Shown piece by piece: positions 3,219 through 40,638 of a stretch of 40,638 bases of DNA; the first letter of the stretch is position 1; each line of letters opens with the position of its first letter. The stretch lies in IMG/VR virus record IMGVR_UViG_2778261641_000011, one strand, 5' to 3'. Origin of the DNA: a virus (lineage: Duplodnaviria > Heunggongvirae > Uroviricota > Caudoviricetes). The notes below the pieces were generated by a model, which was not told where the DNA came from, made no database searches, and was given only the letters and a program-made list of their open reading frames with translations. The position numbers and the translations under genes were made by a program.

Positions 3219-3782
3219 TTATTTCGTTTGAATGCCAGTAACAGGAAATCGTTTATATAGGGTTGATAGCCCAACGTTATAGATACGTGCAACATAACGC
3301 CGTGATTTCCCTGCCGCTATGAGCGCTCCCATCTGTTGCCACTGCTCGTCGCTAAACTTCGGTCTACGCCCACCAATCCGGCCTTTGGATCTGGCAATAG
3401 CCAAACCAGCTAAAGTTCGCTCGCTATTCAAATCAGATTCATACTGCGCAGCAGAAAGAATATTACGGAAATTATAGCGACCACTTGCTGTTTTCAGGTC
3501 TACGCCATCTGTAATACTCCGAAAATTAACACCTTTTTCGTGCAGATTTTGAAACATCAATAGCGCATGCAGCACATTTCTCCCTATCCGATCTAACTTC
3601 CAGACAATCAACTCATCTCCACTTTTCATCACCGTAATTAATTCCTTTAACACAGGGCGATTAGCTGTTCTGCCACTGGCATATTCTTCATAAATTCGCT
3701 CACAGCCAGCTGACTCAAGTGCAAGACGTTGCAACTCTGTATCCTGATGATTTGTTGATACACGAACATACCCGTAAATCAT
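3219..3782 (-). CDS. Serine recombinase, DNA invertase of the Gin/Hin/Pin/Cin family
   Basis: 187 aa, MIYGYVRVSTNHQDTELQR...VWKLDRIGRN...GRIGGRRPK...STLYKRF, near colinear with Hin/Gin. Catalytic Ser in the RVST motif; C-terminal HTH. Confidence 0.9.
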   Translation of the reverse strand: MIYGYVRVSTNHQDTELQRLALESAGCERIYEEYASGRTANRPVLKELITVMKSGDELIVWKLDRIGRNVLHALLMFQNLHEKGVNFRSITDGVDLKTASGRYNFRNILSAAQYESDLNSERTLAGLAIARSKGRIGGRRPKFSDEQWQQMGALIAAGKSRRYVARIYNVGLSTLYKRFPVTGIQTK

Positions 3783-4203
3783 GAGTGCTTCTCCTGTTGT
3801 AAAAACAGGAGAAGAGGCGAAATATCACCTGATTCAGAAAAATATTTCAAAGGTTGGTTTGGGAGAAGCGGCAAAACGGAATGTGGGAACAGGGGAAAAT
3901 CAGATACCAGATATGTCTGCATTTCCATCTGGCAAAAACTGGTTTCAGTTACCAAGTGGTCATATTGTCCAAATGTTTTCGATGAATGTTTATGGGGCGG
4001 ACACTAACGGAACTACAGGTAATTTCCCTATTGCATTTCCTTCAGGCGCACTGGCTGTTAGTGCCTTATGGTCAGATGGCACATTAACGGCTGCTCCGAC
4101 CTTTAAACTTATGGGGTACACGACAACAAGGACATCAGTAACCTTAAAAGTATCAACCGGAAATGGTTTGTATGGAACTATGATTATCGCAATAGGAAGA
4201 TAA
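3781..4203 (+). CDS. Alternative tail-fibre C-terminal variable segment (Sv'-like); silent in this orientation
   Basis: ORF in frame across the crossover site, sharing the GLGE codons with the expressed tail fibre. No independent RBS; only the part from ~3857 would be expressed after inversion. Confidence 0.5.
   Translation: MSASPVVKTGEEAKYHLIQKNISKVGLGEAAKRNVGTGENQIPDMSAFPSGKNWFQLPSGHIVQMFSMNVYGADTNGTTGNFPIAFPSGALAVSALWSDGTLTAAPTFKLMGYTTTRTSVTLKVSTGNGLYGTMIIAIGR
3843..3868. other. hix/gix-like 26-bp inversion crossover site (invertase-proximal)
   Basis: atatttcaaaggTTggtttgggagaa. Its reverse complement begins ttctcccaaaccaa, identical over 14-15 bp to the site at 5704-5718. Confidence 0.6.
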
Positions 4204-4204
4204 T

Positions 4205-4648
4205 ATGAATCAATATATTTATTCCCCTTCGGAAAATGCTTTTTATGCTGTTAATTTAAAAAATACTTATGAAGCAAATGGAACATGGCCCGCTGATGCA
4301 TTAGATATTCCTGATGACATTTCTGTAAAATATATGGCGGAACCGCCACAAGGGAAAATCCGAGTTGCAGGGGAACATGGTTTTCCCACATGGGCTGAAA
4401 TACCTCCACCATCACATGAGGAACTTATTGAACAGGCCGAATCAGAGAGGCAATTATTGATTAACCATGCCAACGAATACATGAACAGTAAACAATGGCC
4501 CGGTAAAGCAGCTATTGGTCGTCTGAAAGGTGAGGAACTGGTGCAATATAATTTGTGGCTGGATTATCTGGACGCACTGGAACTGGTCGATATTTCCAGT
4601 GCTCCAGATATTGAATGGCCTACGCCTCCGGCAGTTCAGGCCAGATGA
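4205..4648 (+). CDS. Alternative tail fibre assembly chaperone (U'-like)
   Basis: 147 aa with the typical Tfa N-terminus MNQYIYSPSENAFY and C-terminal region. Convergent with the active Tfa gene, as in the Mu G segment. Confidence 0.7.
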   Translation: MNQYIYSPSENAFYAVNLKNTYEANGTWPADALDIPDDISVKYMAEPPQGKIRVAGEHGFPTWAEIPPPSHEELIEQAESERQLLINHANEYMNSKQWPGKAAIGRLKGEELVQYNLWLDYLDALELVDISSAPDIEWPTPPAVQAR

Positions 4649-5225
4649 CATCCGGTGCGGTGCTGGTATCTGTTGCCGTCACCGCGTCAATGTAATCCAG
4701 CGCAGCGTTAAGTTGGGCGGTTTCTGCCTGCGTCAGATTCCGTCCGGCCTGCAATTTCAGTTGAATCAGACTGATGGAAGCCATTGCTGCATCAATCAGT
4801 GACTGGCGCTGTGCTTCTGCCGCTTCTACTGCGGCACCGTGTTGTGCCTCAGTATCGGTCACCCATTTCTCACCATCCCATTTATCGTATGGCGTTAATG
4901 GGGCGATAATGGTTGTATTTTCAGGGTAATCACCCGGAGCTGTGATTTCTTTGGTATCTCCCGTTTCGGTACTATAGACAACTTCACCGCGATGGTCTGG
5001 CACATATTCCCATGAGTTTAAATCTACAGAACGACAAATTGCATAACCAGCTTTGTTTGAGCCCGGAGCATCTAAACAAGAACATGCCGGGATACCGACG
5101 CCGACAGCGAGATATTCAGTTGATGTAGAAATATATTCCCGCGTTTCACCATCATAATTATAAATGATAATGTCTCCCGCTTTTATGGCAATGAGTTTGC
5201 TATTTAATACAGCTTTATTCATCAT
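4620..5225 (-). CDS. Tail fibre assembly chaperone (U-like, active orientation)
   Basis: 201 aa; ATGA overlap with the tail-fibre stop. C-terminal Tfa-type sequence (DYIDAV...WPELP). Confidence 0.75.
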
Positions 5226-6007
5226 GCGGCCCTCACAATATAATTAAAGGCGATGTTACGTGGACGATTTTCATTTGCTGTTGGAACAACATTTGCCGCC
5301 GAGAAGTGAACATCTTGTCGGATTTTTCGGTCATTAGCGTATGTCATAGACACATTGATGTTATTCCGGACTGAGGTACCTCCGTAAAAAGCTCCACTCA
5401 CACTTTGAACATCGACAATTGCATTAATTTCGCTGTTTACGCGCAACTGACCAAAACCGCCAGTAATGTTTCGAATAGCATCTCCTTGCGATGAAAGCAG
5501 AGTTCGCCCACTATCCACACCACGTTCATCATCCCAGCCACGAATAAACTCACCGCGTAAATCAGGCAATTTATTTGTCGGGTAAGACTTTGCCAGTTCC
5601 GGGTATTCTTCAGCAGAAAAAGCCGCACCATTGCATTTCAGCCAGCCTGTTGGTGGAGTGGCTGAAGGCCACGGAACAGGCACACCAACGGGTAATGCCG
5701 AACCTTCTCCCAAACCAAGGTTTTCGAGAGCCGTTTTCACCGTGCCATCCGATTTGATATCGCCAAACGGATTCTTGCGGCTTAACAGCAGCGCACGAAG
5801 CGCGGTAAGCAGTTGGTCGTGCCGCGCCTTCTCCAGACTGGCACCGGATGCCTCCACCACGCTGCAGAGTTCTTCCTGCAACATGTCAAAGTAGTCATCA
5901 TCCAGATCGGTGGCAGGCGTGCCTGTCTGGGGGTTACCACGGGTAAAACCGTTCTTACCCGCGCCGAACTTATCCTTCTGCGCGGTTTTCGTGTCTATAC
6001 GATGCAT
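5222..6007 (-). CDS. Tail fibre protein: constant N-terminal part fused to the currently selected variable C-terminus
   Basis: 261 aa with N-terminus [21 protein letters not shown] typical of phage side tail fibres. The crossover site lies in frame at codons ~93-101. Confidence 0.8.
5705..5730. other. hix/gix-like 26-bp inversion crossover site inside the tail fibre gene
   Basis: ttctcccaaaccAAggttttcgagag; compare hixL TTCTTGAAAACCAAGGTTTTTGATAA. Encodes LENLGLGEG in the tail-fibre frame. Confidence 0.65.
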
Positions 6008-8604: not shown

Positions 8605-9683
8605 CAGAACGGGTCCTCCTGTACTCTGGCTTTTTTCTTTTTCCGCGCGCCGGGGGCTTCGGGTTCAGGCAGATAAGCATCAGGTGGGCCGACACGGATT
8701 TCCGTCAGGGTGCCGTTCTGGTCCTGAGTAAACGTGACTTCCGAAACAAGCAGTTCGGTATTGTCGAAACCACAGACCGGATCAAAGACAATCACCCGCT
8801 GGTTGGGCTGCCACAGCGTACCGTTACCCTGTCGCCAGCCCTGCACCACATAGGTGGTTTCATCCGTCCGCGCCGCCCGTTGCCGGGCTTCAAAGTCAGC
8901 ACGCGCAATACAGCCTGCCCCCGTAGCCTGCCCTGTCTGCCTGATATACATCGGACGGTAACGGGCAATAAATGCGTCCTCTGTGCGGGCCCGCAGCGCG
9001 GTGGTGGTGGCCTCACCGAAATCATCGTCGTTTCCGGCACGCTGCCCCGCCACCTGGTAAACAGAAAACCGCTCCCGTATACTCTTCTCCGTATCGCAGG
9101 AAAGGATGTTTTCCCCGAGTACCAGCGCGGTATGTGCCCGCGTTGAGCCAATACCGCCAATCACCAGCCTGCCGTGCGGGTCGTCGTAAGCCAGTGCCTG
9201 CTGCTGACCGAGTATTTTGTTGATTACCTCAATCACCGTTTCACCGTGATCAGGCTGAACATCAGGAATAACACCCGACGGCGCACCGCTGTTCACCACC
9301 TCAATGCCGAAAGGCGCAGCAAGCGCCTGCGCAATCTGCACCAGCGAGCGTCCGTTAAACTGTGTCGGTTCGGCTGCACAGTCAATCAGGTCAGCCGTCA
9401 GACTACGTCCGGCAATACCGGTGCTGACCGAACGGGAATCGTAACGAACGGGGGTCGCCTCCACCCAGCCGGTGATCACCAGCTCATCACCAATCAGCAC
9501 TTCCACTTTTGAACCGTTTTTAATGCGCGGCTGAAGCGTGGTGATACCCTCATCTCCCGGCCACTGGCGGGTGATCTCCACACTGAAATCCCGCGCCAGC
9601 CGTTCAATACCGGCACCGATGCGCACCGATGTCCAGCCATTCCACTCCCGGCCATTTACCCGTAGCGTGACATTGTCGTTCAT
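8604..9683 (-). CDS. Baseplate hub / late control D-like protein (Mu gp44-like)
   Basis: 359 aa; position downstream of the DNA circulation protein. Confidence 0.7.
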   Translation of the reverse strand: MNDNVTLRVNGREWNGWTSVRIGAGIERLARDFSVEITRQWPGDEGITTLQPRIKNGSKVEVLIGDELVITGWVEATPVRYDSRSVSTGIAGRSLTADLIDCAAEPTQFNGRSLVQIAQALAAPFGIEVVNSGAPSGVIPDVQPDHGETVIEVINKILGQQQALAYDDPHGRLVIGGIGSTRAHTALVLGENILSCDTEKSIRERFSVYQVAGQRAGNDDDFGEATTTALRARTEDAFIARYRPMYIRQTGQATGAGCIARADFEARQRAARTDETTYVVQGWRQGNGTLWQPNQRVIVFDPVCGFDNTELLVSEVTFTQDQNGTLTEIRVGPPDAYLPEPEAPGARKKKKARVQEDPF

Positions 9684-11008
9684 TGCACTGGCACCTTCAG
9701 AGGGATCACCGGCACAAAGCCGGGATGCGTAATGGCATTACGCCGGATAATGTCCGCGTCACGCGCCGCGTTATCAAACCAGGTCGCCGCCAGCACCAGC
9801 GCGGGTAAAACCTCATCCGGTGTGCGCTGAATGATCCGTGCAGACTGTTCAAGGCGCGTGTTGATATCCGCATTCAGATCTGCTTTCACCCGGCGCAGCG
9901 CCAGAAACAGCGCATCGCTGGTTGTACGGGACAACTCCTTATCAATTGCCGTATTCAGTGTGTCGCGAATGTCAGTCAGTTCTTCCCACGTCGGCAGGTC
10001 AACCGTGTTTTTCACCGCCGGTGCATTGTTCAGTGCCGGATGCGTGACGGAAGGCCAGCCAGTGCTCTGCGCGGGTGTTGTTGCCTGCCCCACTGCGGAA
10101 TTCTGCATCACCGCGGAAGTTGTTGGCGCAGGCAATCGGGTGACGGCATACGCCGCTTCGCTGATTGCGGTCGTACGAAGGGTGCTGGCAACCACGTTAC
10201 GCTGCTGCGTCGCCGTGGCGGTGGTTTTACTGTCCGTTTTCCAGACGCCGCGCGGTTGCAGATCGCTGCCGAGGCTGACACCGGAAAGCGTTTTGATCAT
10301 GGTGACCAGGTCGCTGGCGTTACCATAAAGGCGTTTCCCGGTACGCCACATTTTCTGCACCTGCTCAACGAAATTTTTGCCTGACGATGGCGGCGGCAGA
10401 AGTACCGAGATATCCCCCTGCAACAGCCTGGCGGCATCCGATACGGCAGAATCCACCACTTTCATCGCATCAGAAACATACCCCAGCATTATGCTGGCAT
10501 TACCGATAACGTCGTTCTGCACGAAATCCGCCACACCATCGATACTGAAACCGCTGAAGCTGTCACTGATGCAGTCATCCAGTGCAGAACAGGATGACAT
10601 CAGCGTCTGCGCCGTCGCCGCACCTGATGTGGGGTAAGAGATTTCTCCTGCTTCGACAAACTTCAGGTCAAAGCGGACAATACGCCCTTCACTTTTCGAT
10701 GTGCTGACCCGAACTTCCCCGTCAACACAGACTTTCAGCTCACCATATGTCGGGTGGACAAGCGTGCCGGGACCGGGTTTATTCAGCGCTTCAATCAGGC
10801 GATCGCGCTGGTCAAAGCAGTCATCTCCCACCACATAAGCTGTGATGGACGGGCGGAAAGTGACTTTTCCCAGATCTTCGGTATAGGGCTTGTCGCGGTT
10901 CGGATATTCGTGTGTTTCCACACGGCGACCGGTTCCCGCACTTTCTTCTTCAACCTTAAACGGTACGCCGCGAAATGACGCATCCTGAAGCCTGTTTTTC
11001 CACGTCAT
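9680..11008 (-). CDS. DNA circulation-like tail protein (Mu gp43 / N-like)
   Basis: 442 aa; immediately downstream of tape measure in the Mu order; overlaps the next gene. Confidence 0.65.
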   Translation of the reverse strand: MTWKNRLQDASFRGVPFKVEEESAGTGRRVETHEYPNRDKPYTEDLGKVTFRPSITAYVVGDDCFDQRDRLIEALNKPGPGTLVHPTYGELKVCVDGEVRVSTSKSEGRIVRFDLKFVEAGEISYPTSGAATAQTLMSSCSALDDCISDSFSGFSIDGVADFVQNDVIGNASIMLGYVSDAMKVVDSAVSDAARLLQGDISVLLPPPSSGKNFVEQVQKMWRTGKRLYGNASDLVTMIKTLSGVSLGSDLQPRGVWKTDSKTTATATQQRNVVASTLRTTAISEAAYAVTRLPAPTTSAVMQNSAVGQATTPAQSTGWPSVTHPALNNAPAVKNTVDLPTWEELTDIRDTLNTAIDKELSRTTSDALFLALRRVKADLNADINTRLEQSARIIQRTPDEVLPALVLAATWFDNAARDADIIRRNAITHPGFVPVIPLKVPVQ

Positions 11009-11029
11009 ATAAACTCCGGATACAAAAAA

Positions 11030-11094
11030 CCCGCCAAATCTGCTTTGTCAGTTATTTACATCGCAGAAGATGTGGCGGGAACCTAATATTTTTA
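11030..11094 (-). terminator. Intrinsic terminator downstream of the moron gene
   Basis: On the minus strand, hairpin cccgccacatcttctgc ... gcagatttggcggg followed by TTTTTTG. Confidence 0.5.
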
Positions 11095-11098
11095 ATTA

Positions 11099-11593
11099 CT
11101 ATCTGAGTTGAACATCAATGGAATAAATATTACCACTCTTTATAAATTTAGAATCTGTCCTTTCATCAAAAGATTCAAATGACTGTACCTTTAAAAACTT
11201 TTTCATTTTATTTTCAAAAATACTTTCATTAACACCAGTTAAATACTTGAACGCTCTACCAGCAAGGACCTCATTACTTAAATCCATTGTGTTTTTATTG
11301 TCTTTGAAAAACCAAACAATAACCTTTTGTGGGCATGATGGATTATAAACAGATATATAAAACTGCGGCTCATATTTTTCATCAGCGTCATCACTAAGCA
11401 TTTCTTCAGAAGATAATTCTCTTCTGAATTCATATTGCCGCTTAGTTATTCCTTCATCCTTTATTATCTCTTGCTTAACTGGTGCAATACCTATAGAAGA
11501 GATTAATTCTGACTCATTAAAGCTGAACTTACACTCTTCCGCAGCCAAGTTAAAAGATAAAAGTGCAGATATAAAAAAAACAAAGATACGCAT
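11099..11593 (-). CDS. Moron: secreted or periplasmic protein of unknown function
   Basis: AT-rich island inside a GC-rich tail operon. Likely start is the internal Met (MRIFVFFISALLSFNLA-AEE, signal peptide with an AXA-type site). Promoter-like TATAAT upstream and a terminator downstream. Confidence 0.6.
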   Translation of the reverse strand: MRIFVFFISALLSFNLAAEECKFSFNESELISSIGIAPVKQEIIKDEGITKRQYEFRRELSSEEMLSDDADEKYEPQFYISVYNPSCPQKVIVWFFKDNKNTMDLSNEVLAGRAFKYLTGVNESIFENKMKKFLKVQSFESFDERTDSKFIKSGNIYSIDVQLR

Positions 11594-11692
11594 AATCATC
11601 CCTTCAATCATTTGTAAGGAATGATTATATTAACTACTTAAAGCTGAAAACCCAAATTATGCCAGACAAAAACACATTAATCATTTTGTACA

Positions 11693-13525
11693 CTACCTGA
11701 ACCGCGTATAGCCAACATCATGGCTGACATCAAAACCGCTGGATCGCGTTTCCATAACCCGCATACCCGGAGGCGAATTCACAAAAGAGACCTTGATCTC
11801 ACCATCAACTTTTGGCACAGAAGCTTTGTTAATCATGAAGGGATTCGAGCCTGTGGCATCGGAGGCGTTGTTTGACTGAGCCGGATCCACCGCCGGATAA
11901 GGTGTGTATCCCCGCGCCGGTATTCCCGTCCCATAAGCATCATAAGCACCCGCGCCCCACTGCGCAGAGTTAATGGCATCGACCGTGTCACCGGAACTGT
12001 CGGTAAACCACTCAATAATTGGCTTCAGCTTGTCCCACATATCCTGAAACCACTTAACAACCGGTCCCCAGTTATTGATCACCATCCCCAGCGGCGACCA
12101 GGCAAAAACCTTCTTCAGAAGTTCCCAACCTGCCTCAAAATAAGGACCAATGGTTTCCCAGAGCTTCTTGAAATAAGGTCCGACAACATCCCAGTTAGTG
12201 ATAATTAATCCCGCAGCCAGAGCAATCGCCGTCGCAATCATGCCAATCGGCGTCATCGACATAATCCTGCTGACAATACTGATGGCACTGCCCACGCCCA
12301 TCAATCCCAGTTTCAGAATCGCAAGACCGGCAGCAAGCCCGACGACGCCGCGAATAACCCGGGGATTTTCATCCGCAAACTTCGTGAATTTCTCCCCCAA
12401 CTCCCCCAGCCATTGTGTGATATTTTTAGCGTCACCAGAAAATGCGCCGCCAATAGCCGCAAGGCCGTTAGTTGCGGTCCCTGTCATTGCCTCCCACAGG
12501 TTGGACAGCGTACCAAGCTGTGCCTGAACACGTTTATTCAGGCTGGCCTGTTTATTCATCTTCTGCTGGATCTGATCGTAGCCATCCTTTCCTTTATCGA
12601 TTAGTGCATTGACCACCTGAAGGGTTTCGGCATCATCACCAAATATTGCCTTAAGTACACCTGTTCGCTTAACGTCGGTCAGTTTTCGCAGCTTTGCCAG
12701 TTGCCTGAACATGTTATCAAGACCGCCAAAACTCCCTTTGCCGTCAGTAAAATCGAGCTGTACCCCGAGTCTCTGGCGGGCCATGACTTTATTGACGTCC
12801 CTGATTTTCTTAACGCTTAATCCGGACTGGATAACTTTTCGCAGGGCATTACCTGCCGACTCCCCGTTCATCCCCATCTGATCCATCATGACACTGATGG
12901 GGGCAAGACTCTGTGCAGCCTGAAGACCGTCCTTATTCACCATCTTCAGAACAGAGCTGGTTTTAGTGAAGAATGACAGCATGTTGGTGTCGTCAACGCC
13001 CAGATAAAACGCCTTCTGAATTGTGTCGAACAGCCCCATCATGTCTTCTGAGGCCGTTCCGGTAGCATCCTGCATCTTTGCGGCAAACTCGGCAGCCGCT
13101 TCCGGTGTTTTTTTCAGTTGTACCGCAAGATAAGCTGTCGCTTTACCCACACCACCCAGAATGTTTTCTGCCGGGATCCCCTGACGCACCAGCATCTGCA
13201 TCATGTTCTGGAAATCAGCCGTTGTACCGGGTAGCTGGTTACCCAGGCCAATAGCCAGTTTATTGATGTCCTGAAAGCTCTTTCCAACCTCGCCGTTCGC
13301 ATCCATCATGGCGACTTTCAGCCCGGTGGCGGCGTTTTCCTGATCGGCATAAGATTTCAGGGAAAGCGTCAGACCCGCTGCCAGTCCGCCACCAAGCGCC
13401 AGCCCACCCTGTGACGCTTCTTCCGCCTGGCGTTTAAATCCCCGGATTTTCTTTTGCATTTTCGACAGCGCGGGAGAAAGCCTGTCGACACCGGTGATCA
13501 ACGCCTTAAGCTCAAATTCAGCCAT
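11693..13525 (-). CDS. Tail tape measure protein
   Basis: 610 aa, Ala/Gly-rich coiled-coil-like with hydrophobic segments; lies between the chaperone and baseplate genes. Confidence 0.85.
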   Translation of the reverse strand: MAEFELKALITGVDRLSPALSKMQKKIRGFKRQAEEASQGGLALGGGLAAGLTLSLKSYADQENAATGLKVAMMDANGEVGKSFQDINKLAIGLGNQLPGTTADFQNMMQMLVRQGIPAENILGGVGKATAYLAVQLKKTPEAAAEFAAKMQDATGTASEDMMGLFDTIQKAFYLGVDDTNMLSFFTKTSSVLKMVNKDGLQAAQSLAPISVMMDQMGMNGESAGNALRKVIQSGLSVKKIRDVNKVMARQRLGVQLDFTDGKGSFGGLDNMFRQLAKLRKLTDVKRTGVLKAIFGDDAETLQVVNALIDKGKDGYDQIQQKMNKQASLNKRVQAQLGTLSNLWEAMTGTATNGLAAIGGAFSGDAKNITQWLGELGEKFTKFADENPRVIRGVVGLAAGLAILKLGLMGVGSAISIVSRIMSMTPIGMIATAIALAAGLIITNWDVVGPYFKKLWETIGPYFEAGWELLKKVFAWSPLGMVINNWGPVVKWFQDMWDKLKPIIEWFTDSSGDTVDAINSAQWGAGAYDAYGTGIPARGYTPYPAVDPAQSNNASDATGSNPFMINKASVPKVDGEIKVSFVNSPPGMRVMETRSSGFDVSHDVGYTRFR

Positions 13526-13936
13526 GTGTGCGTTTCTCCTGCTCTATCCTGTTTGCCTGACTGACCAGCAAGGGAATTTCACTGATCGGCATACTCAGCA
13601 ATTCGAAGGGATTAATGCGCCAGTAGCTGGCGCAGTCAAAGAAGCGATCAGTGAGGTATTCAGCCGTCAGGCCTGGAGGAAAAAACCAGCCACAAGCCAC
13701 GCCGCTGCATTCAGGTCTGCCGGAGACATCTGGTCGACAGAGCTTTGCGGCACTTTCGCCAGCCGCACAATGTATTTCGACACCACATGCGCCAGAAGTC
13801 TGACGGACTCATCCTGATTCATCTGGTAGGGATACCCCAGCTCGCGGACATCCTTCCCGGTGGGCTCATCAAACTCCAGTACGGAGAGTGTCTCGCCATG
13901 AGCAGTAATCGGTTTCTTTAACTCAAGCTCTTTCAT
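13518..13936 (-). CDS. Tail assembly chaperone with a programmed -1 frameshift extension (G/GT-like)
   Basis: Zero-frame ORF 13667-13936 ends ...LVAGFFLQA. Slippery heptamer T-TTT-TTC (plus-strand 13679-13685) lets the -1 frame continue as PPGLTAEYL... to 13518. Confidence 0.6.
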
Positions 13937-25190: not shown

Positions 25191-26243
25191 TTATTTCCCC
25201 ACCAGTTCACTTACCTCTTTCACCGTCTGATTAAACCGCTCTGACTCAAGTTCAACACCTAACGCCCGACGCCCCAGCGCCATTGCCGCTTTTATTGTGG
25301 AACCGGATCCCATAAAGAAATCAGCAACCAGATCGCCTTGTCGACTACTGGCACTGATTATTTGCCGGAGCATATCCGCAGGCTTCTCACACGGATGTTT
25401 ACCCGGGTAGAACTGAACGGGTTTATGCGTCCAGACGTCGGTATAAGGCACGGAGACTGATACGGAGAAATAGCGCCGGAGAGATTTAAACTCATCCAGC
25501 AATTCAGAATATTTGCGATTCAGTGAATCATAAGATGCCACCAGCTGGTGGTGTGGTTGTTCCAGTTGTTGTTCCTGAAACTTCTCTGCCGCTATACGGG
25601 AAAACAGTGCCTGTAACTTCCGATAGTCAGCCTCATTCGGCAACTGCCACTGACTGGCACCAAACCAGTGGGAAACCATATTTTTCTTACCTGTGGCTTC
25701 GGCAATTTGTTTTGCCGTTATACCCAGTTCGGCACGAGCATCCCTGAAATACGATATCAGCGGTGCCATTATGTGCTGTTTGAGTTCCCTTTCTTTTGCC
25801 GCATAGCCGTCACTTTTGCCGCGATATGGCCCCTGGTAATGTTCAGCAAACAGAACGCGCTCTGTGGCAGGAAAATATGCGCGCAGACTTTCTTTATTAC
25901 ACCCATTCCAACGTCCGGACGGCTTCGCCCAGATGATATGGTTAAGCACGTTGAAACGTTCACGCATCATGATCTCAATATCAGATGCCAGGCGATGCCC
26001 ACAGAACAGGTAAAGGCTTCCGTCAGGTTTTAACACCCGCCAGAACTGGGCCAGACAGTGGTCCAGCCACTTAAGGTAATCTTCGTCCCCTTTCCACTGA
26101 TTGTCCCAACCGTTAGGTTTCACCTTGAAGTAAGGCGGATCGGTAACAATCAGGTCAATGGAATCATCAGGCAGGGACTGAATAAAATGCAGGCAATCAG
26201 CGTTGATTAAATCAACACTGTTTATTTTTACAGTATTTTTCAT
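25191..26243 (-). CDS. Orphan DNA methyltransferase (N6-adenine or N4-cytosine, beta class)
   Basis: 350 aa with motif IV TDPPY near the N-terminus and AdoMet motif I FFMGSGST near the C-terminus. No restriction endonuclease gene nearby. Confidence 0.85.
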   Translation of the reverse strand: MKNTVKINSVDLINADCLHFIQSLPDDSIDLIVTDPPYFKVKPNGWDNQWKGDEDYLKWLDHCLAQFWRVLKPDGSLYLFCGHRLASDIEIMMRERFNVLNHIIWAKPSGRWNGCNKESLRAYFPATERVLFAEHYQGPYRGKSDGYAAKERELKQHIMAPLISYFRDARAELGITAKQIAEATGKKNMVSHWFGASQWQLPNEADYRKLQALFSRIAAEKFQEQQLEQPHHQLVASYDSLNRKYSELLDEFKSLRRYFSVSVSVPYTDVWTHKPVQFYPGKHPCEKPADMLRQIISASSRQGDLVADFFMGSGSTIKAAMALGRRALGVELESERFNQTVKEVSELVGK

Positions 26244-26849: not shown

Positions 26850-27632
26850 TTATCTTGTCACCTTTCTCAATTGTATCTCTGCATATGCTTCTTCCTGCCA
26901 GCACTTTGTAACCAGTTTATCAATGACATCTGCATATCCTTTGTACCACTGATAATCCGTCAGGTCTGGTACCAGCTTCTGGACATGATGCCGCGCCAGT
27001 GTGGTTGGTAAACGGCTAAACCGGTTTCCATTGCAACGCCCACAAATCTTATAAACAGGCGTGCCATGAAGCCGGGTCCTTTTTTCATCCAGGACAATAC
27101 CTTTACCCTTACACCCTCTGCACGCTGTGCTGACTTCTCCCTTACCATGACAATGCTGACATAGTTCCTTCACCCACTCTTCCTTGATAACAGATTCCCC
27201 GCTTCTGGAGTGTTTCACCACTTCGCGCAATACATTATGAAATCCAGTACCAGCACAATGCTCACAGCGAGCCTTACTTGCCGCAGACCTGGAATAATCA
27301 GCAAAGGCAAAATTCACAAGGTAAGGGATGATCTGTAACCGGGTTTCTTCACTCAATTTGTTCAATGTCGGGTTATCCAGTGCCATCGCGTAATTGAGCA
27401 GACCTTCAATCGCAAATTGAGGATCCTGAACACCAACTTTTGCCAGGAATAAGGCAAACCCAAGCGGTGCTTTCGACTGCACCATCCCCTGCGCAGCCAT
27501 CACATCCGTAATCGTTAAACCACCTGAGCCTGTCGCCGGTGCGTCATCGCTCAATTTTGGAGATTTTGGGGAGTAATATTTTGGTAAGGCTTCAAGGTTC
27601 ATGCTCGTTCTCCACTTACGCCAATACGCCAA
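26850..27632 (-). CDS. Putative late-gene antiterminator (Q-like), multi-zinc-ribbon
   Basis: 260 aa with four CxxC pairs (CEHCAGTG, CQHCHGKG, CRGCKGKG, CGRC); located immediately upstream of a promoter-plus-terminator unit preceding the lysis genes. Confidence 0.55.
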   Translation of the reverse strand: MAYWRKWRTSMNLEALPKYYSPKSPKLSDDAPATGSGGLTITDVMAAQGMVQSKAPLGFALFLAKVGVQDPQFAIEGLLNYAMALDNPTLNKLSEETRLQIIPYLVNFAFADYSRSAASKARCEHCAGTGFHNVLREVVKHSRSGESVIKEEWVKELCQHCHGKGEVSTACRGCKGKGIVLDEKRTRLHGTPVYKICGRCNGNRFSRLPTTLARHHVQKLVPDLTDYQWYKGYADVIDKLVTKCWQEEAYAEIQLRKVTR

Positions 27633-39258: not shown

Positions 39259-39550
39259 ATGTAGAGATTATTTTATCGATATATCATTGGGTTATGTTAT
39301 TCAGCATCACTGTTCAGGAGGCTCAATAGCGGGGTACTATACCATAACAACAGGAAGCGCCTGTCTCATTGCAAAAGAAAATTGAGATCAAATCAAGGCA
39401 TGAAGCTCTCACGAAGTGATGGAAATAATCTTATTAGCCGTTAGCCTTGTTAAGGACAATGATAAACAATCCAGGTTCGACGATAAATAAAAAATCACAC
39501 ATTAAACTCCGGTGATATCTCTTCCTGCTAATGGCACTGATAGAAGAAAA

Positions 39551-39576
39551 AAGAACCCAATAAGTATTAGGTTCTT
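39551..39576. terminator. Hairpin terminator downstream of the flanking host ORF
   Basis: aagaacc-caataagtatta-ggttctt flanked by A/T runs. Confidence 0.4.
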
Positions 39577-39615
39577 TTATGTAATGCCTTCCATACCATC
39601 GAAGAACTTCACATA

Positions 39616-40638
39616 TTATTTCGCCGATTTAACCCCGAATAAATCATAAATTAAATTAGAAGTATCTGTAAGTATTTTAATCTTTTCCTTTGAGTTTGGG
39701 TCAAACGACTTAGCAAAGTCAATTAATTTCGGTGCAGCATCTCGCATTTTGCTTAAAATATCAGGTTCGAGCTTTCCTTCATTCACCAGAAGTGACATTT
39801 TATCCAGATAGTCATCAAATTTCATCCCCCCCCGGTCCGCCAGATGCTTCATCTCTCCCAGGTACTTCTTCATATCACGTTGAGATAATTCTTCAAACTG
39901 AGCTGTCAGATAGTTCTCATTATATTCATTAATATTCACTTTTTCTGCTCCGGCTAAATCTGTGTAGGCACTAGAATATGAAAGTGAAATTAACAGCGAA
40001 GCAAATAATTTTAAGCTGTTGTCATCATGTTCCTGGCAGGCATTAACAAACGTTAAAAAACCAGAACCTATTGCTTGAAAATGTATATTCGCTAAAGGTT
40101 CATTATCCTTAGATTCCTCATAAAATAGCTGAACCGTGGAGGGAAGGCCATTCTTAGTTTCTACATCAAAAGTACATCGTTCAATGGGAGTCGCATCTTT
40201 ATTATCCCCAGGATTACATATACTATTAATCGCGAAATGAAAAATAGCCCGGTCAACAACTGATGCAATAAAGTCACGATCGTTTAAATCCTCATCAGTG
40301 CAATCGTCAATATACTTATTGACCCACACTTTGAGATTAGTTATTTGCTCAATTAAAAACACATTTTTTTTACGTGCATGCCATAAATTATGAGTGATTC
40401 TTTGAATAAACAAATCTATTTTTGCAATAATTATATCCCGATGACGCAGCGCTGAATAATCAATAGACTTACCATATATATTATTTAATTTACCTTTGAT
40501 TGTACCTCTATTATCTAATTTATCTTTGGTTGCATCTATATTATCTAATTTATCTTTGTTTGCATCTTTATTATCGAATTGATTTGAATTGAGTGTTTTA
40601 TTAAAGTATCCAGTTGCACCGGGTATTATCTTCAACAT
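39616..40638 (-). CDS. Host-flank hypothetical protein with a KD-rich tandem-repeat N-terminal region (possibly 5'-truncated by the window edge)
   Basis: 340-aa ORF reaching the last base of the window; AT-rich; N-terminal region repeats KDKLDN-type units. Confidence 0.5.
40481..40593. repeat. Tandem ~30-bp direct repeats (about 3.5 copies) within the host ORF
   Basis: ttatctaatttatctttggttgcatctata-like units at 40481, 40511, 40541 and 40571. Confidence 0.55.

Follow-up and report, generated by a model that had tools for sequence, protein, structure and literature searches.

Morons located in or beside the tail genes of lambdoid phages can be expressed from the prophage and encode exported envelope proteins, as do bor and lom of lambda and cor of phi80, N15 and HK022. 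The gp15 moron of phage HK97 was reportedly described by Juhala et al. in 2000 and by Cumby et al. in 2012. It adjoins the tape-measure gene, is expressed from the prophage and encodes an inner-membrane protein whose block to genome entry depends on the tail of the incoming phage, and Cor excludes phages through inactivation of FhuA (PMC3594210). In the Streptococcus thermophilus phage TP-J34, the lipoprotein Ltp reportedly targets the tape-measure protein (Bebeacua et al. 2013, cited in PMC3952083). The genome papers on SfIV and SfII describe a single moron, situated between Q and the lysis genes.

Here we analyze a gene, hereafter gene X, from the tail operon of an SfV-like prophage. Like gp15 of HK97, X is extra DNA of deviating GC content within a tail operon, lies beside the tape-measure gene and encodes a small protein that is predicted to be directed to the envelope. 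The two differ in that gp15 is located upstream of the tape-measure gene of a siphovirus tail and specifies a YebO-like inner-membrane protein, whereas X is located downstream of that gene in a Mu-type myovirus tail operon and encodes a predicted soluble periplasmic protein; the exclusion phenotype belongs to gp15 and is extended to X by analogy. Ltp is prophage-encoded, resides outside the cytoplasmic membrane and reportedly hits the incoming tape-measure protein, which is the mechanism that we propose for X; it is a Gram-positive lipoprotein and its gene belongs to the lysogeny module rather than to the tail operon. Bor, Lom and Cor are outer-membrane proteins or lipoproteins encoded at other genome positions, whereas X carries neither a lipobox nor a beta-barrel prediction. 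Comparison of sequences and folds found no homology of X to HK97 gp15/YebO, Cor, SieA/B, Imm/Sp, Ltp or phrog_8545, and X is not homologous to Bor or Lom. By analogy, we regard X as probably working like gp15 and Ltp while being a member of neither family.

Genomic context of gene X

The window, i.e., the whole stretch of DNA analyzed (40,638 nucleotides), is the genome of an SfV-like temperate phage that combines lambdoid control genes with a head of the HK97 type and a contractile tail of the Mu type. The integration site of the prophage in E. coli adjoins dusA, and its structural genes are on the minus strand; an identical stretch is found in E. coli strain Br_178_kylling, and near-identical stretches occur in many other strains and in phage SKA5. 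The segment 11030..11692 contains a single substantial open reading frame, on the minus strand (11099..11611, 170 aa). Gene X most likely starts within it at the ATG at 11593 (11099..11593, minus strand) and encodes a 164-aa predicted exported protein (MRIFVFF..., WP_023277704.1, PHROG 8976), the in-frame ATG at 11611 further upstream yielding the 170-aa form. The shorter protein is the PGAP call in the identical genome. PHROG 8976 matched the long frame with E = 5e-107, residues 7-170 corresponding to profile positions 1-164 of 164; since the profile begins at the methionine of ATG 11593, the 164-aa start is favored. It is also backed by a Shine-Dalgarno sequence read from the DNA, GAAGGGA (11599..11605, minus strand), at a spacing of 5 nt 5' of this ATG.

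Upstream, X is flanked by the tail tape-measure gene (11693..13525, minus strand; PF10145), which is 97% identical to that of SfV until its last codons, and downstream by the DNA-circulation gene N of the Mu N/gp43 type (9680..11008, minus strand; PF07157, E = 5.7e-34). The gap between the two measures 684 bp and is filled by X. A sequence-only reading of this DNA had described an AT-rich gene lodged between the tape-measure and DNA-circulation genes, amid GC-rich and translationally coupled neighbors, and each of these points is borne out. X has a GC content of 0.311 and a GC3 of 0.26, against 0.52-0.59 and 0.57-0.64, respectively, in the neighboring genes; measured against 367 windows of 495 bp drawn from the structural module, its GC content gives z = -6.8, and no other 495-bp window of the entire 40.6 kb has so low a GC content. 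Neighboring tail genes overlap by 4 nt (N/P) or by 1 nt (P/gp45, sheath/tube and tube/chaperone), whereas X is set apart by 99 nt on its upstream side and by 90 nt on its downstream side.

The segment is absent from SfV, SfII and SfI, in which both flanks are 96-97% identical and the annotated distance from the tape-measure gene to N is 45 bp (about 60 bp when counted as far as the conserved start of N). Homology to SfV and SfII ends in the final tape-measure codons, at about 11695-11700, and is regained at the A-run 11024-11029, so that the limits 11030 and 11692 proposed from the sequence match the breaks at both ends. The same tail junction was found in about 1,070-1,090 of 5,426 complete E. 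coli genomes (about a fifth), X being present in 84; phage SKA5 also carries it. Comparison with related prophages, which the sequence-only reading had put forward as a check, thus finds X missing not only from SfV, SfII and SfI but also from most E. coli relatives, and it is not a standard tail gene. Nor is it conserved over Mu-like and SfV-like tail modules, being absent as well from the modules with a tight junction (L020 and L021), and unrelated genes take its place in other modules. A repeat search at the insertion boundaries found no direct repeats and no transposon-like ends, and insertion by a mobile element was rejected on this ground.

Predicted export and structure of the X protein

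The protein begins with a predicted Sec signal peptide (11540..11593, minus strand; residues 1-18, MRIFVFFISALLSFNLAA) and a probable cleavage site before E19-E20-C21. The N-terminus reads MR, then IFVFFISALLSF, then NLAA/EEC, the slash marking the putative cut. In a Kyte-Doolittle analysis, the best 10-residue window reaches 3.0, and the remainder of X does not exceed 0.7 over 19 residues; no member of the family has a second hydrophobic segment. Family-wide, the N-terminal pattern comprises M-R (or M-K), a hydrophobic run of 12-16 residues, small-x-A at about residue 18 and E/x-x-C, the signal segment being otherwise poorly conserved in sequence. A variable sequence with a preserved architecture is typical of signal peptides. 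Signal peptide and cleavage were judged by a hand-made heuristic, which recovers the n-h-c architecture and the small-x-A site throughout the family, in agreement with the signal peptide proposed earlier. The lipobox [LVI][ASTVI][GAS]C is absent from every family member, and the first cysteine of X (position 21, A-E-E-C) lies three residues past the predicted cleavage site; for these reasons the reading of X as a lipoprotein (SPII) was rejected. Judged from these sequence features, export of X to the periplasm is likely.

AlphaFold2 modeling, a step also suggested in the sequence-only reading, yielded a compact alpha/beta domain (pLDDT 86.9, pTM 0.79) from which residues 1-20, modeled with low confidence, are detached. 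The model has no solved fold relative: Foldseek against the PDB returned no match at E <= 0.001, and a PDB profile search with X gave no credible match. The one weak match in BFVD is a virome protein auto-named 'periplasmic binding protein' (TM 0.60, E = 3e-6). From these features, we infer that mature X is a soluble periplasmic alpha/beta protein of about 146 aa.

Distribution and conservation of the X family

Homologues of X formed 14 clusters in a search of 5.8 billion proteins and only 12 in an HMMER profile search of 1.84 billion representatives; wider homologue searches recovered no distant annotated relatives. A scan of one genome per species found homologues only in Kluyvera and Atlantibacter. 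Identity to X ranges from 41-67% among the aligned family members, with 45 positions invariant throughout; among these are exactly two cysteines, C21 and C87, which probably form one disulfide. With a dN/dS of about 0.14 where synonymous sites are unsaturated, X is a real gene under purifying selection. The exact protein is encoded on at least 1,000 contigs of E. coli, Shigella sonnei and Salmonella, where it is always named 'hypothetical', and the E. coli, Shigella and Salmonella hosts come from animals, food and patients. Scans of Pfam, NCBIfam and PADLOC gave no match for X, PHROG 8976 is labeled as a family of unknown function, and literature searches by accession number and PHROG identifier retrieved no paper mentioning these proteins or the site that they occupy.

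A cargo slot between the tape-measure and DNA-circulation genes

The site between the tape-measure gene and N accommodates genes of at least five families that are AT-rich, unrelated to one another and, by prediction, all equipped with export signals. Its most common state is empty, as in about half of an even 60-record sample. In addition to X (predicted signal peptide, tail-gene strand, GC 0.31; the 84 complete E. coli genomes mentioned above), three families are encoded on the tail-gene strand: a 176-aa protein with an N-terminal membrane anchor (phrog_5485, GC 0.34, 174 complete E. coli genomes), a 162-aa protein with the classical signal peptide SFA/KP (GC 0.34, 101 genomes) and a 225-aa lipoprotein with the motif LLGGC (phrog_1353, GC 0.42, 54 genomes). 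The fifth, an OB-fold PF12869 protein with an N-terminal anchor and a GC content of 0.39, is encoded on the opposite strand, and one of its alleles was found in 7 genomes. Altogether, about 420 of the 5,426 complete E. coli genomes hold one of the five described cargo genes, and the cargo-bearing E. coli relatives have near-identical N genes.

The five families are mutually unrelated by BLASTP. Homology of X with the 162-aa family was considered and rejected, as a profile-profile comparison with hhalign gave a probability of 4.7% and aligned the signal peptides alone. The OB-fold cargo resembles X in occupying exactly the same slot, in being AT-rich and in its predicted envelope targeting, which takes the form of an anchor; it differs in its unrelated sequence, its opposite strand and a bidirectional hairpin at the tape-measure side. 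It matches phrog_8545, which carries the annotation 'superinfection exclusion Sie-like', a database annotation only.

Tape-measure gene, X and N follow each other in this order in each of the 44 IMG/VR loci that allowed a judgment, and the same order is kept in E. coli, in phage SKA5, in the four metagenome or isolate lineages designated L004-L009, in Kluyvera and Atlantibacter and in Pantoea phage AH07. In every homologous locus X is AT-rich, with a GC content of 0.31-0.42 compared with 0.50-0.55 in the flanks. The earlier picture of a moron inserted into the operon therefore stands as regards the extra DNA, which SfV, SfII and SfI lack, but not as a one-off event, since the slot is a cargo hotspot; a sporadic insertion is contradicted by alleles of 41-67% identity that fill this slot in tail modules of Escherichia, Kluyvera, Atlantibacter and Pantoea.

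Terminator and expression signals

An intrinsic terminator is located at 11024..11079 on the minus strand, with arms at 11079..11065 and 11044..11030, a U6 tract at 11029..11024 and a folding energy of -22.3 kcal/mol; it ends 5 nt before the GGAG of N (11018..11015). A consensus scan overlooked it because the loop is too long. A hairpin with a U-tract occurs at the same position in diverged X alleles (ACCCGCTTCGGCGGGTTTTTTT), likewise behind every unrelated same-strand cargo gene, and in the same place at the empty sites of SfV and SfII (CCCACTCCGGTGGGATTTTTT), where it is an annotated terminator in SfII. The window retains the GGCGGGTTTTTT half of this element within an enlarged stem-loop, and the terminator is missing only in tail modules with a tight 24-bp junction. 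Its presence in empty sites and behind unrelated cargo assigns it to the slot and not to gene X. The sequence-only reading had credited the gene with its own terminator; the hairpin and U6 tract exist, but they are resident in the slot.

An exact TATAAT is present as a candidate -10 element at 11624..11629 on the minus strand, for which the best -35 is TTTTCA (11650..11645) at a spacer of 15 nt, and a candidate extended -10, TGgCATAAT (11656..11664, minus strand), has the best score, 9.5. The best promoter score of the region was matched by about 11% of shuffled sequences, and a consensus promoter scan found none on the minus strand. The TATAAT-like element noted earlier is thus real as a motif, but its promoter scores are no better than those of shuffled sequence. 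Between X alleles, the upstream regions show no sequence relationship. The X homologue of Pantoea phage AH07 starts 16 nt past the tape-measure stop codon, which leaves no intergenic room for a promoter there, and it is probably expressed from the late transcript.

The leader of X contains a hairpin (11592..11628, minus strand) in which the arm 11628..11616 pairs with 11604..11592 over 13 bp and sequesters the Shine-Dalgarno sequence and AUG of X. Its stability of -16.5 kcal/mol corresponds to z = -4.87, and none of 200 shuffles was as stable. The exact TATAAT overlaps the 5' arm. An Rfam scan of 10800-11900 found nothing credible. We suggest that the hairpin may act as a promoter-dependent switch that confines X to the lysogen: in late read-through transcripts it would occlude the Shine-Dalgarno sequence and AUG, and a transcript initiated from the TATAAT would lack the 5' arm and leave X translatable. 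As a separate observation, the alleles of lineages L004 and L008 also pair their Shine-Dalgarno sequences, by unrelated sequences; in other alleles such pairing is not convincing.

Taken with the genomic comparison, X displays most of what defines a moron, namely extra DNA, foreign composition and a downstream terminator, and is very probably accessory cargo, a moron in the sense of Hendrix. The 'classic' moron signature ascribed to it in the sequence-only reading is accordingly supported in part: the terminator is not the gene's own, and the promoter candidates score like shuffled sequence.

Possible functions of X

Our overall reading, held tentatively and a little short of an even chance, is that X serves as an accessory protein of the periplasm and probably excludes superinfecting phages. 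The slot would extend from the tape-measure stop codon to the resident terminator directly before the ribosome-binding site of N. The prophage encodes a Q antiterminator (26850..27632), and during lytic growth the Q-antiterminated late transcript would read through the slot and leave the tail genes unaffected, a behavior deduced from lambdoid late transcription. In the lysogen, the terminator would stop transcripts born in the slot from entering N and the baseplate genes; expression of X in this state is what we infer. The cleavable Sec signal peptide would release X into the periplasm, where it would interfere with the passage of a superinfecting phage's tail tip, tape-measure protein or N protein and thereby prevent DNA delivery. 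That five unrelated cargo families are all predicted to be envelope-targeted argues for a function at the level of the envelope and not for a cytoplasmic defense. The exclusion function itself, drawn from analogy, is possible and somewhat less than evenly probable.

The same moron features and envelope targeting would also fit a lysogenic-conversion factor that alters the envelope physiology or the virulence of its host in the way of lambda Bor and Lom, with no anti-phage role, for example through serum or stress resistance, adhesion or nutrient binding. The wide occurrence of X across animal, food and patient isolates of E. coli, Shigella and Salmonella would suit such a factor, as would the weak fold match to the virome 'periplasmic binding protein' (TM 0.60). 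Against this, X resembles no known virulence or fitness factor, a sister cargo of the slot bears an exclusion-type annotation, and X was never seen outside the tail slot in the 44 judgeable IMG/VR loci or the other contexts examined, a strict confinement that is unusual for a general host-fitness gene; we consider a conversion factor unlikely. Confinement to the slot also suits a role in the lytic cycle, with periplasmic X made late from the Q-dependent transcript instead of from the prophage and, for example, blocking secondary adsorption or injection, shielding progeny from debris or modulating lysis. X is co-oriented with the late operon and embedded in it, no convincing promoter of its own was found, and the near-contiguity of the AH07 homologue with the tape-measure gene fits a lytic-cycle role as well as one in the lysogen. 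Set against the exclusion reading itself are this same orientation, the promoter scores and the consideration that X, at 31% GC, is likely to be bound by H-NS and might not be expressed in the lysogen. Against the lytic-cycle role, SfV, SfII and SfI are viable without X, which is hence dispensable, the leader hairpin would occlude the Shine-Dalgarno sequence of read-through transcripts, and one alternative cargo, being on the opposite strand, cannot be a late-operon gene, all of which makes this role rather improbable.

X might also be pictured as an orphan immunity protein of the periplasm, carried by the prophage to shield its host from bacterial toxins that act there, for instance colicins or effectors of T6SS or CDI systems. 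The vicinity of X contains no cognate toxin gene, X has no significant similarity to any immunity family and its constant linkage to the tail module would go unexplained, and we hold this to be very improbable. The position of X inside the tail operon, constant even in diverged modules, could finally be taken to indicate a regular structural or assembly part of the Mu-type tail. Such a role is effectively excluded by the absence of X from SfV, SfII, SfI and most E. coli relatives despite flanks of 96-97% identity, by its replacement with unrelated genes, and by its predicted signal peptide, foreign composition and lack of any tail-family match.

What is new here is a delineated cargo slot and several envelope-protein families that are common in E. 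coli; none of the five cargo proteins has an assigned function or a solved fold relative. Should they indeed block entry in the periplasm or at the membrane, as the exclusion reading would have it, several new families would join the few superinfection-exclusion proteins listed for Gram-negative bacteria, and the cargo proteins would provide a handle on the passage of DNA from Mu-type tails through the periplasm and be relevant to host range in phage therapy. With its fixed terminator, the slot is in itself a natural example of cargo carried within an essential late operon without disturbance.

Allele exchange at the slot

X alleles that share just 59% identity are carried by a pair of modules matching at 91-100% in their tube, tape-measure, N and P proteins. 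A sliding comparison delimited the divergent block, which takes in the final ~230 nt of the tape-measure gene, all of X and ~420 nt at the start of N, with an identity of 52-71% within the block between tail modules that are otherwise 95-100% identical. Because the block spans the gene ends, X alleles are exchanged by recombination together with the adjoining ends of both neighbors and are not just inherited along with the module. A more elaborate proposal is that the slot forms a dedicated exclusion cassette equipped with the leader switch, in which each exported cargo would recognize, in the periplasm, the C-terminus of the incoming tape-measure protein and/or the N-terminal domain of the injected N protein, and in which these three elements would diversify and swap as one block. 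We regard this as improbable. Divergences of X, the tape-measure C-terminus and the N-terminus of N all correlate (Spearman 0.64-0.80), a pattern that does not separate co-evolution from plain linkage. Among the E. coli modules, identity at the 5' end of N stays at 93-98% irrespective of the cargo, whereas different cargoes go with different 3' ends of the tape-measure gene.

Accessory genes between the tape-measure gene and N

The site between the tape-measure gene and the DNA-circulation gene N, which houses the AT-rich exported-protein gene X in the window, is occupied in other E. coli prophages by four further families of cargo genes, AT-rich and mutually unrelated (for the four families together, comparison loci L012:771-1301, L014:763-1440, L013:738-1124, L015:836-1288 and L022:3011-3499). 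These encode a 176-aa membrane-anchored protein, a 225-aa lipoprotein and a 162-aa signal-peptide protein, present in 174, 54 and 101 of 5,426 complete E. coli genomes, respectively, and an OB-fold PF12869 protein (phrog_8545, annotated 'Sie-like'), which lies on the opposite strand and was detected in at least 7 of the 5,426.

Comparison of two X-bearing tail modules, L004 and L008, revealed a sharp-edged divergent block (L004:5700-6965) of 52-71% nucleotide identity, while the remainder of the modules is 95-100% identical. The block takes in the final ~230 nt of the tape-measure gene, the whole of X and, at the start of N, ~420 nt corresponding to the DNA_circ_N domain; the X alleles thus move together with the adjoining ends of both neighbors.

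The leader of X contains a predicted 13-bp hairpin (window 11592-11628, minus strand; -16.5 kcal/mol, z = -4.87) that buries the Shine-Dalgarno sequence and the start codon; an exact TATAAT coincides in part with the 5' arm of the hairpin. Such a predicted arrangement suggests that X translation could hinge on the position of the transcript start. The Shine-Dalgarno sequence is likewise paired in the L004 and L008 alleles, through unrelated sequences.

A terminator hairpin is kept in the empty site of phages SfV (L001:1845-1889) and SfII (L002:1839-1877), directly 5' of the ribosome-binding site of N and within the essential late operon. In the deposited annotations of both phages, N begins at in-frame ATGs further upstream, next to the terminator or inside it, and not at the conserved GGAG-N7-ATG.

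Other features of the window

A second cargo slot lies between the holin gene and that of the Q antiterminator (26850..27632). In the window, a DNA methylase gene (25191-26243; PF01555) is situated downstream of Q, on the side towards the lysis genes; the otherwise near-identical prophage of E. coli strain Br_178_kylling carries different, plus-strand genes in this stretch, namely a TIGR04255 family member and two hypotheticals. It is this slot, between Q and the lysis genes, for which a moron has been reported in SfIV (PMC3851460).

A resolvase-type invertase gene (3219..3782; PF00239 and HTH_7) adjoins tail-fibre C-terminus and fibre-assembly genes in opposite orientations (3781..4648, plus strand; 4620..6007, minus strand), and the whole region (3219-6007) resembles an invertible host-range segment of the Gin/Cin type. 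A 60-aa ORF (13518-13700) bridges the gap from the tail assembly chaperone gene (13667..13936) to the tape-measure gene and fits the chaperone extension that is commonly made by a programmed -1 frameshift. The far end of the window (39500-40638) is AT-rich (GC 0.33-0.36), encodes a DUF2713 protein cut by the window end (39616..40638), and may represent either a further accessory region or host DNA at the flank.
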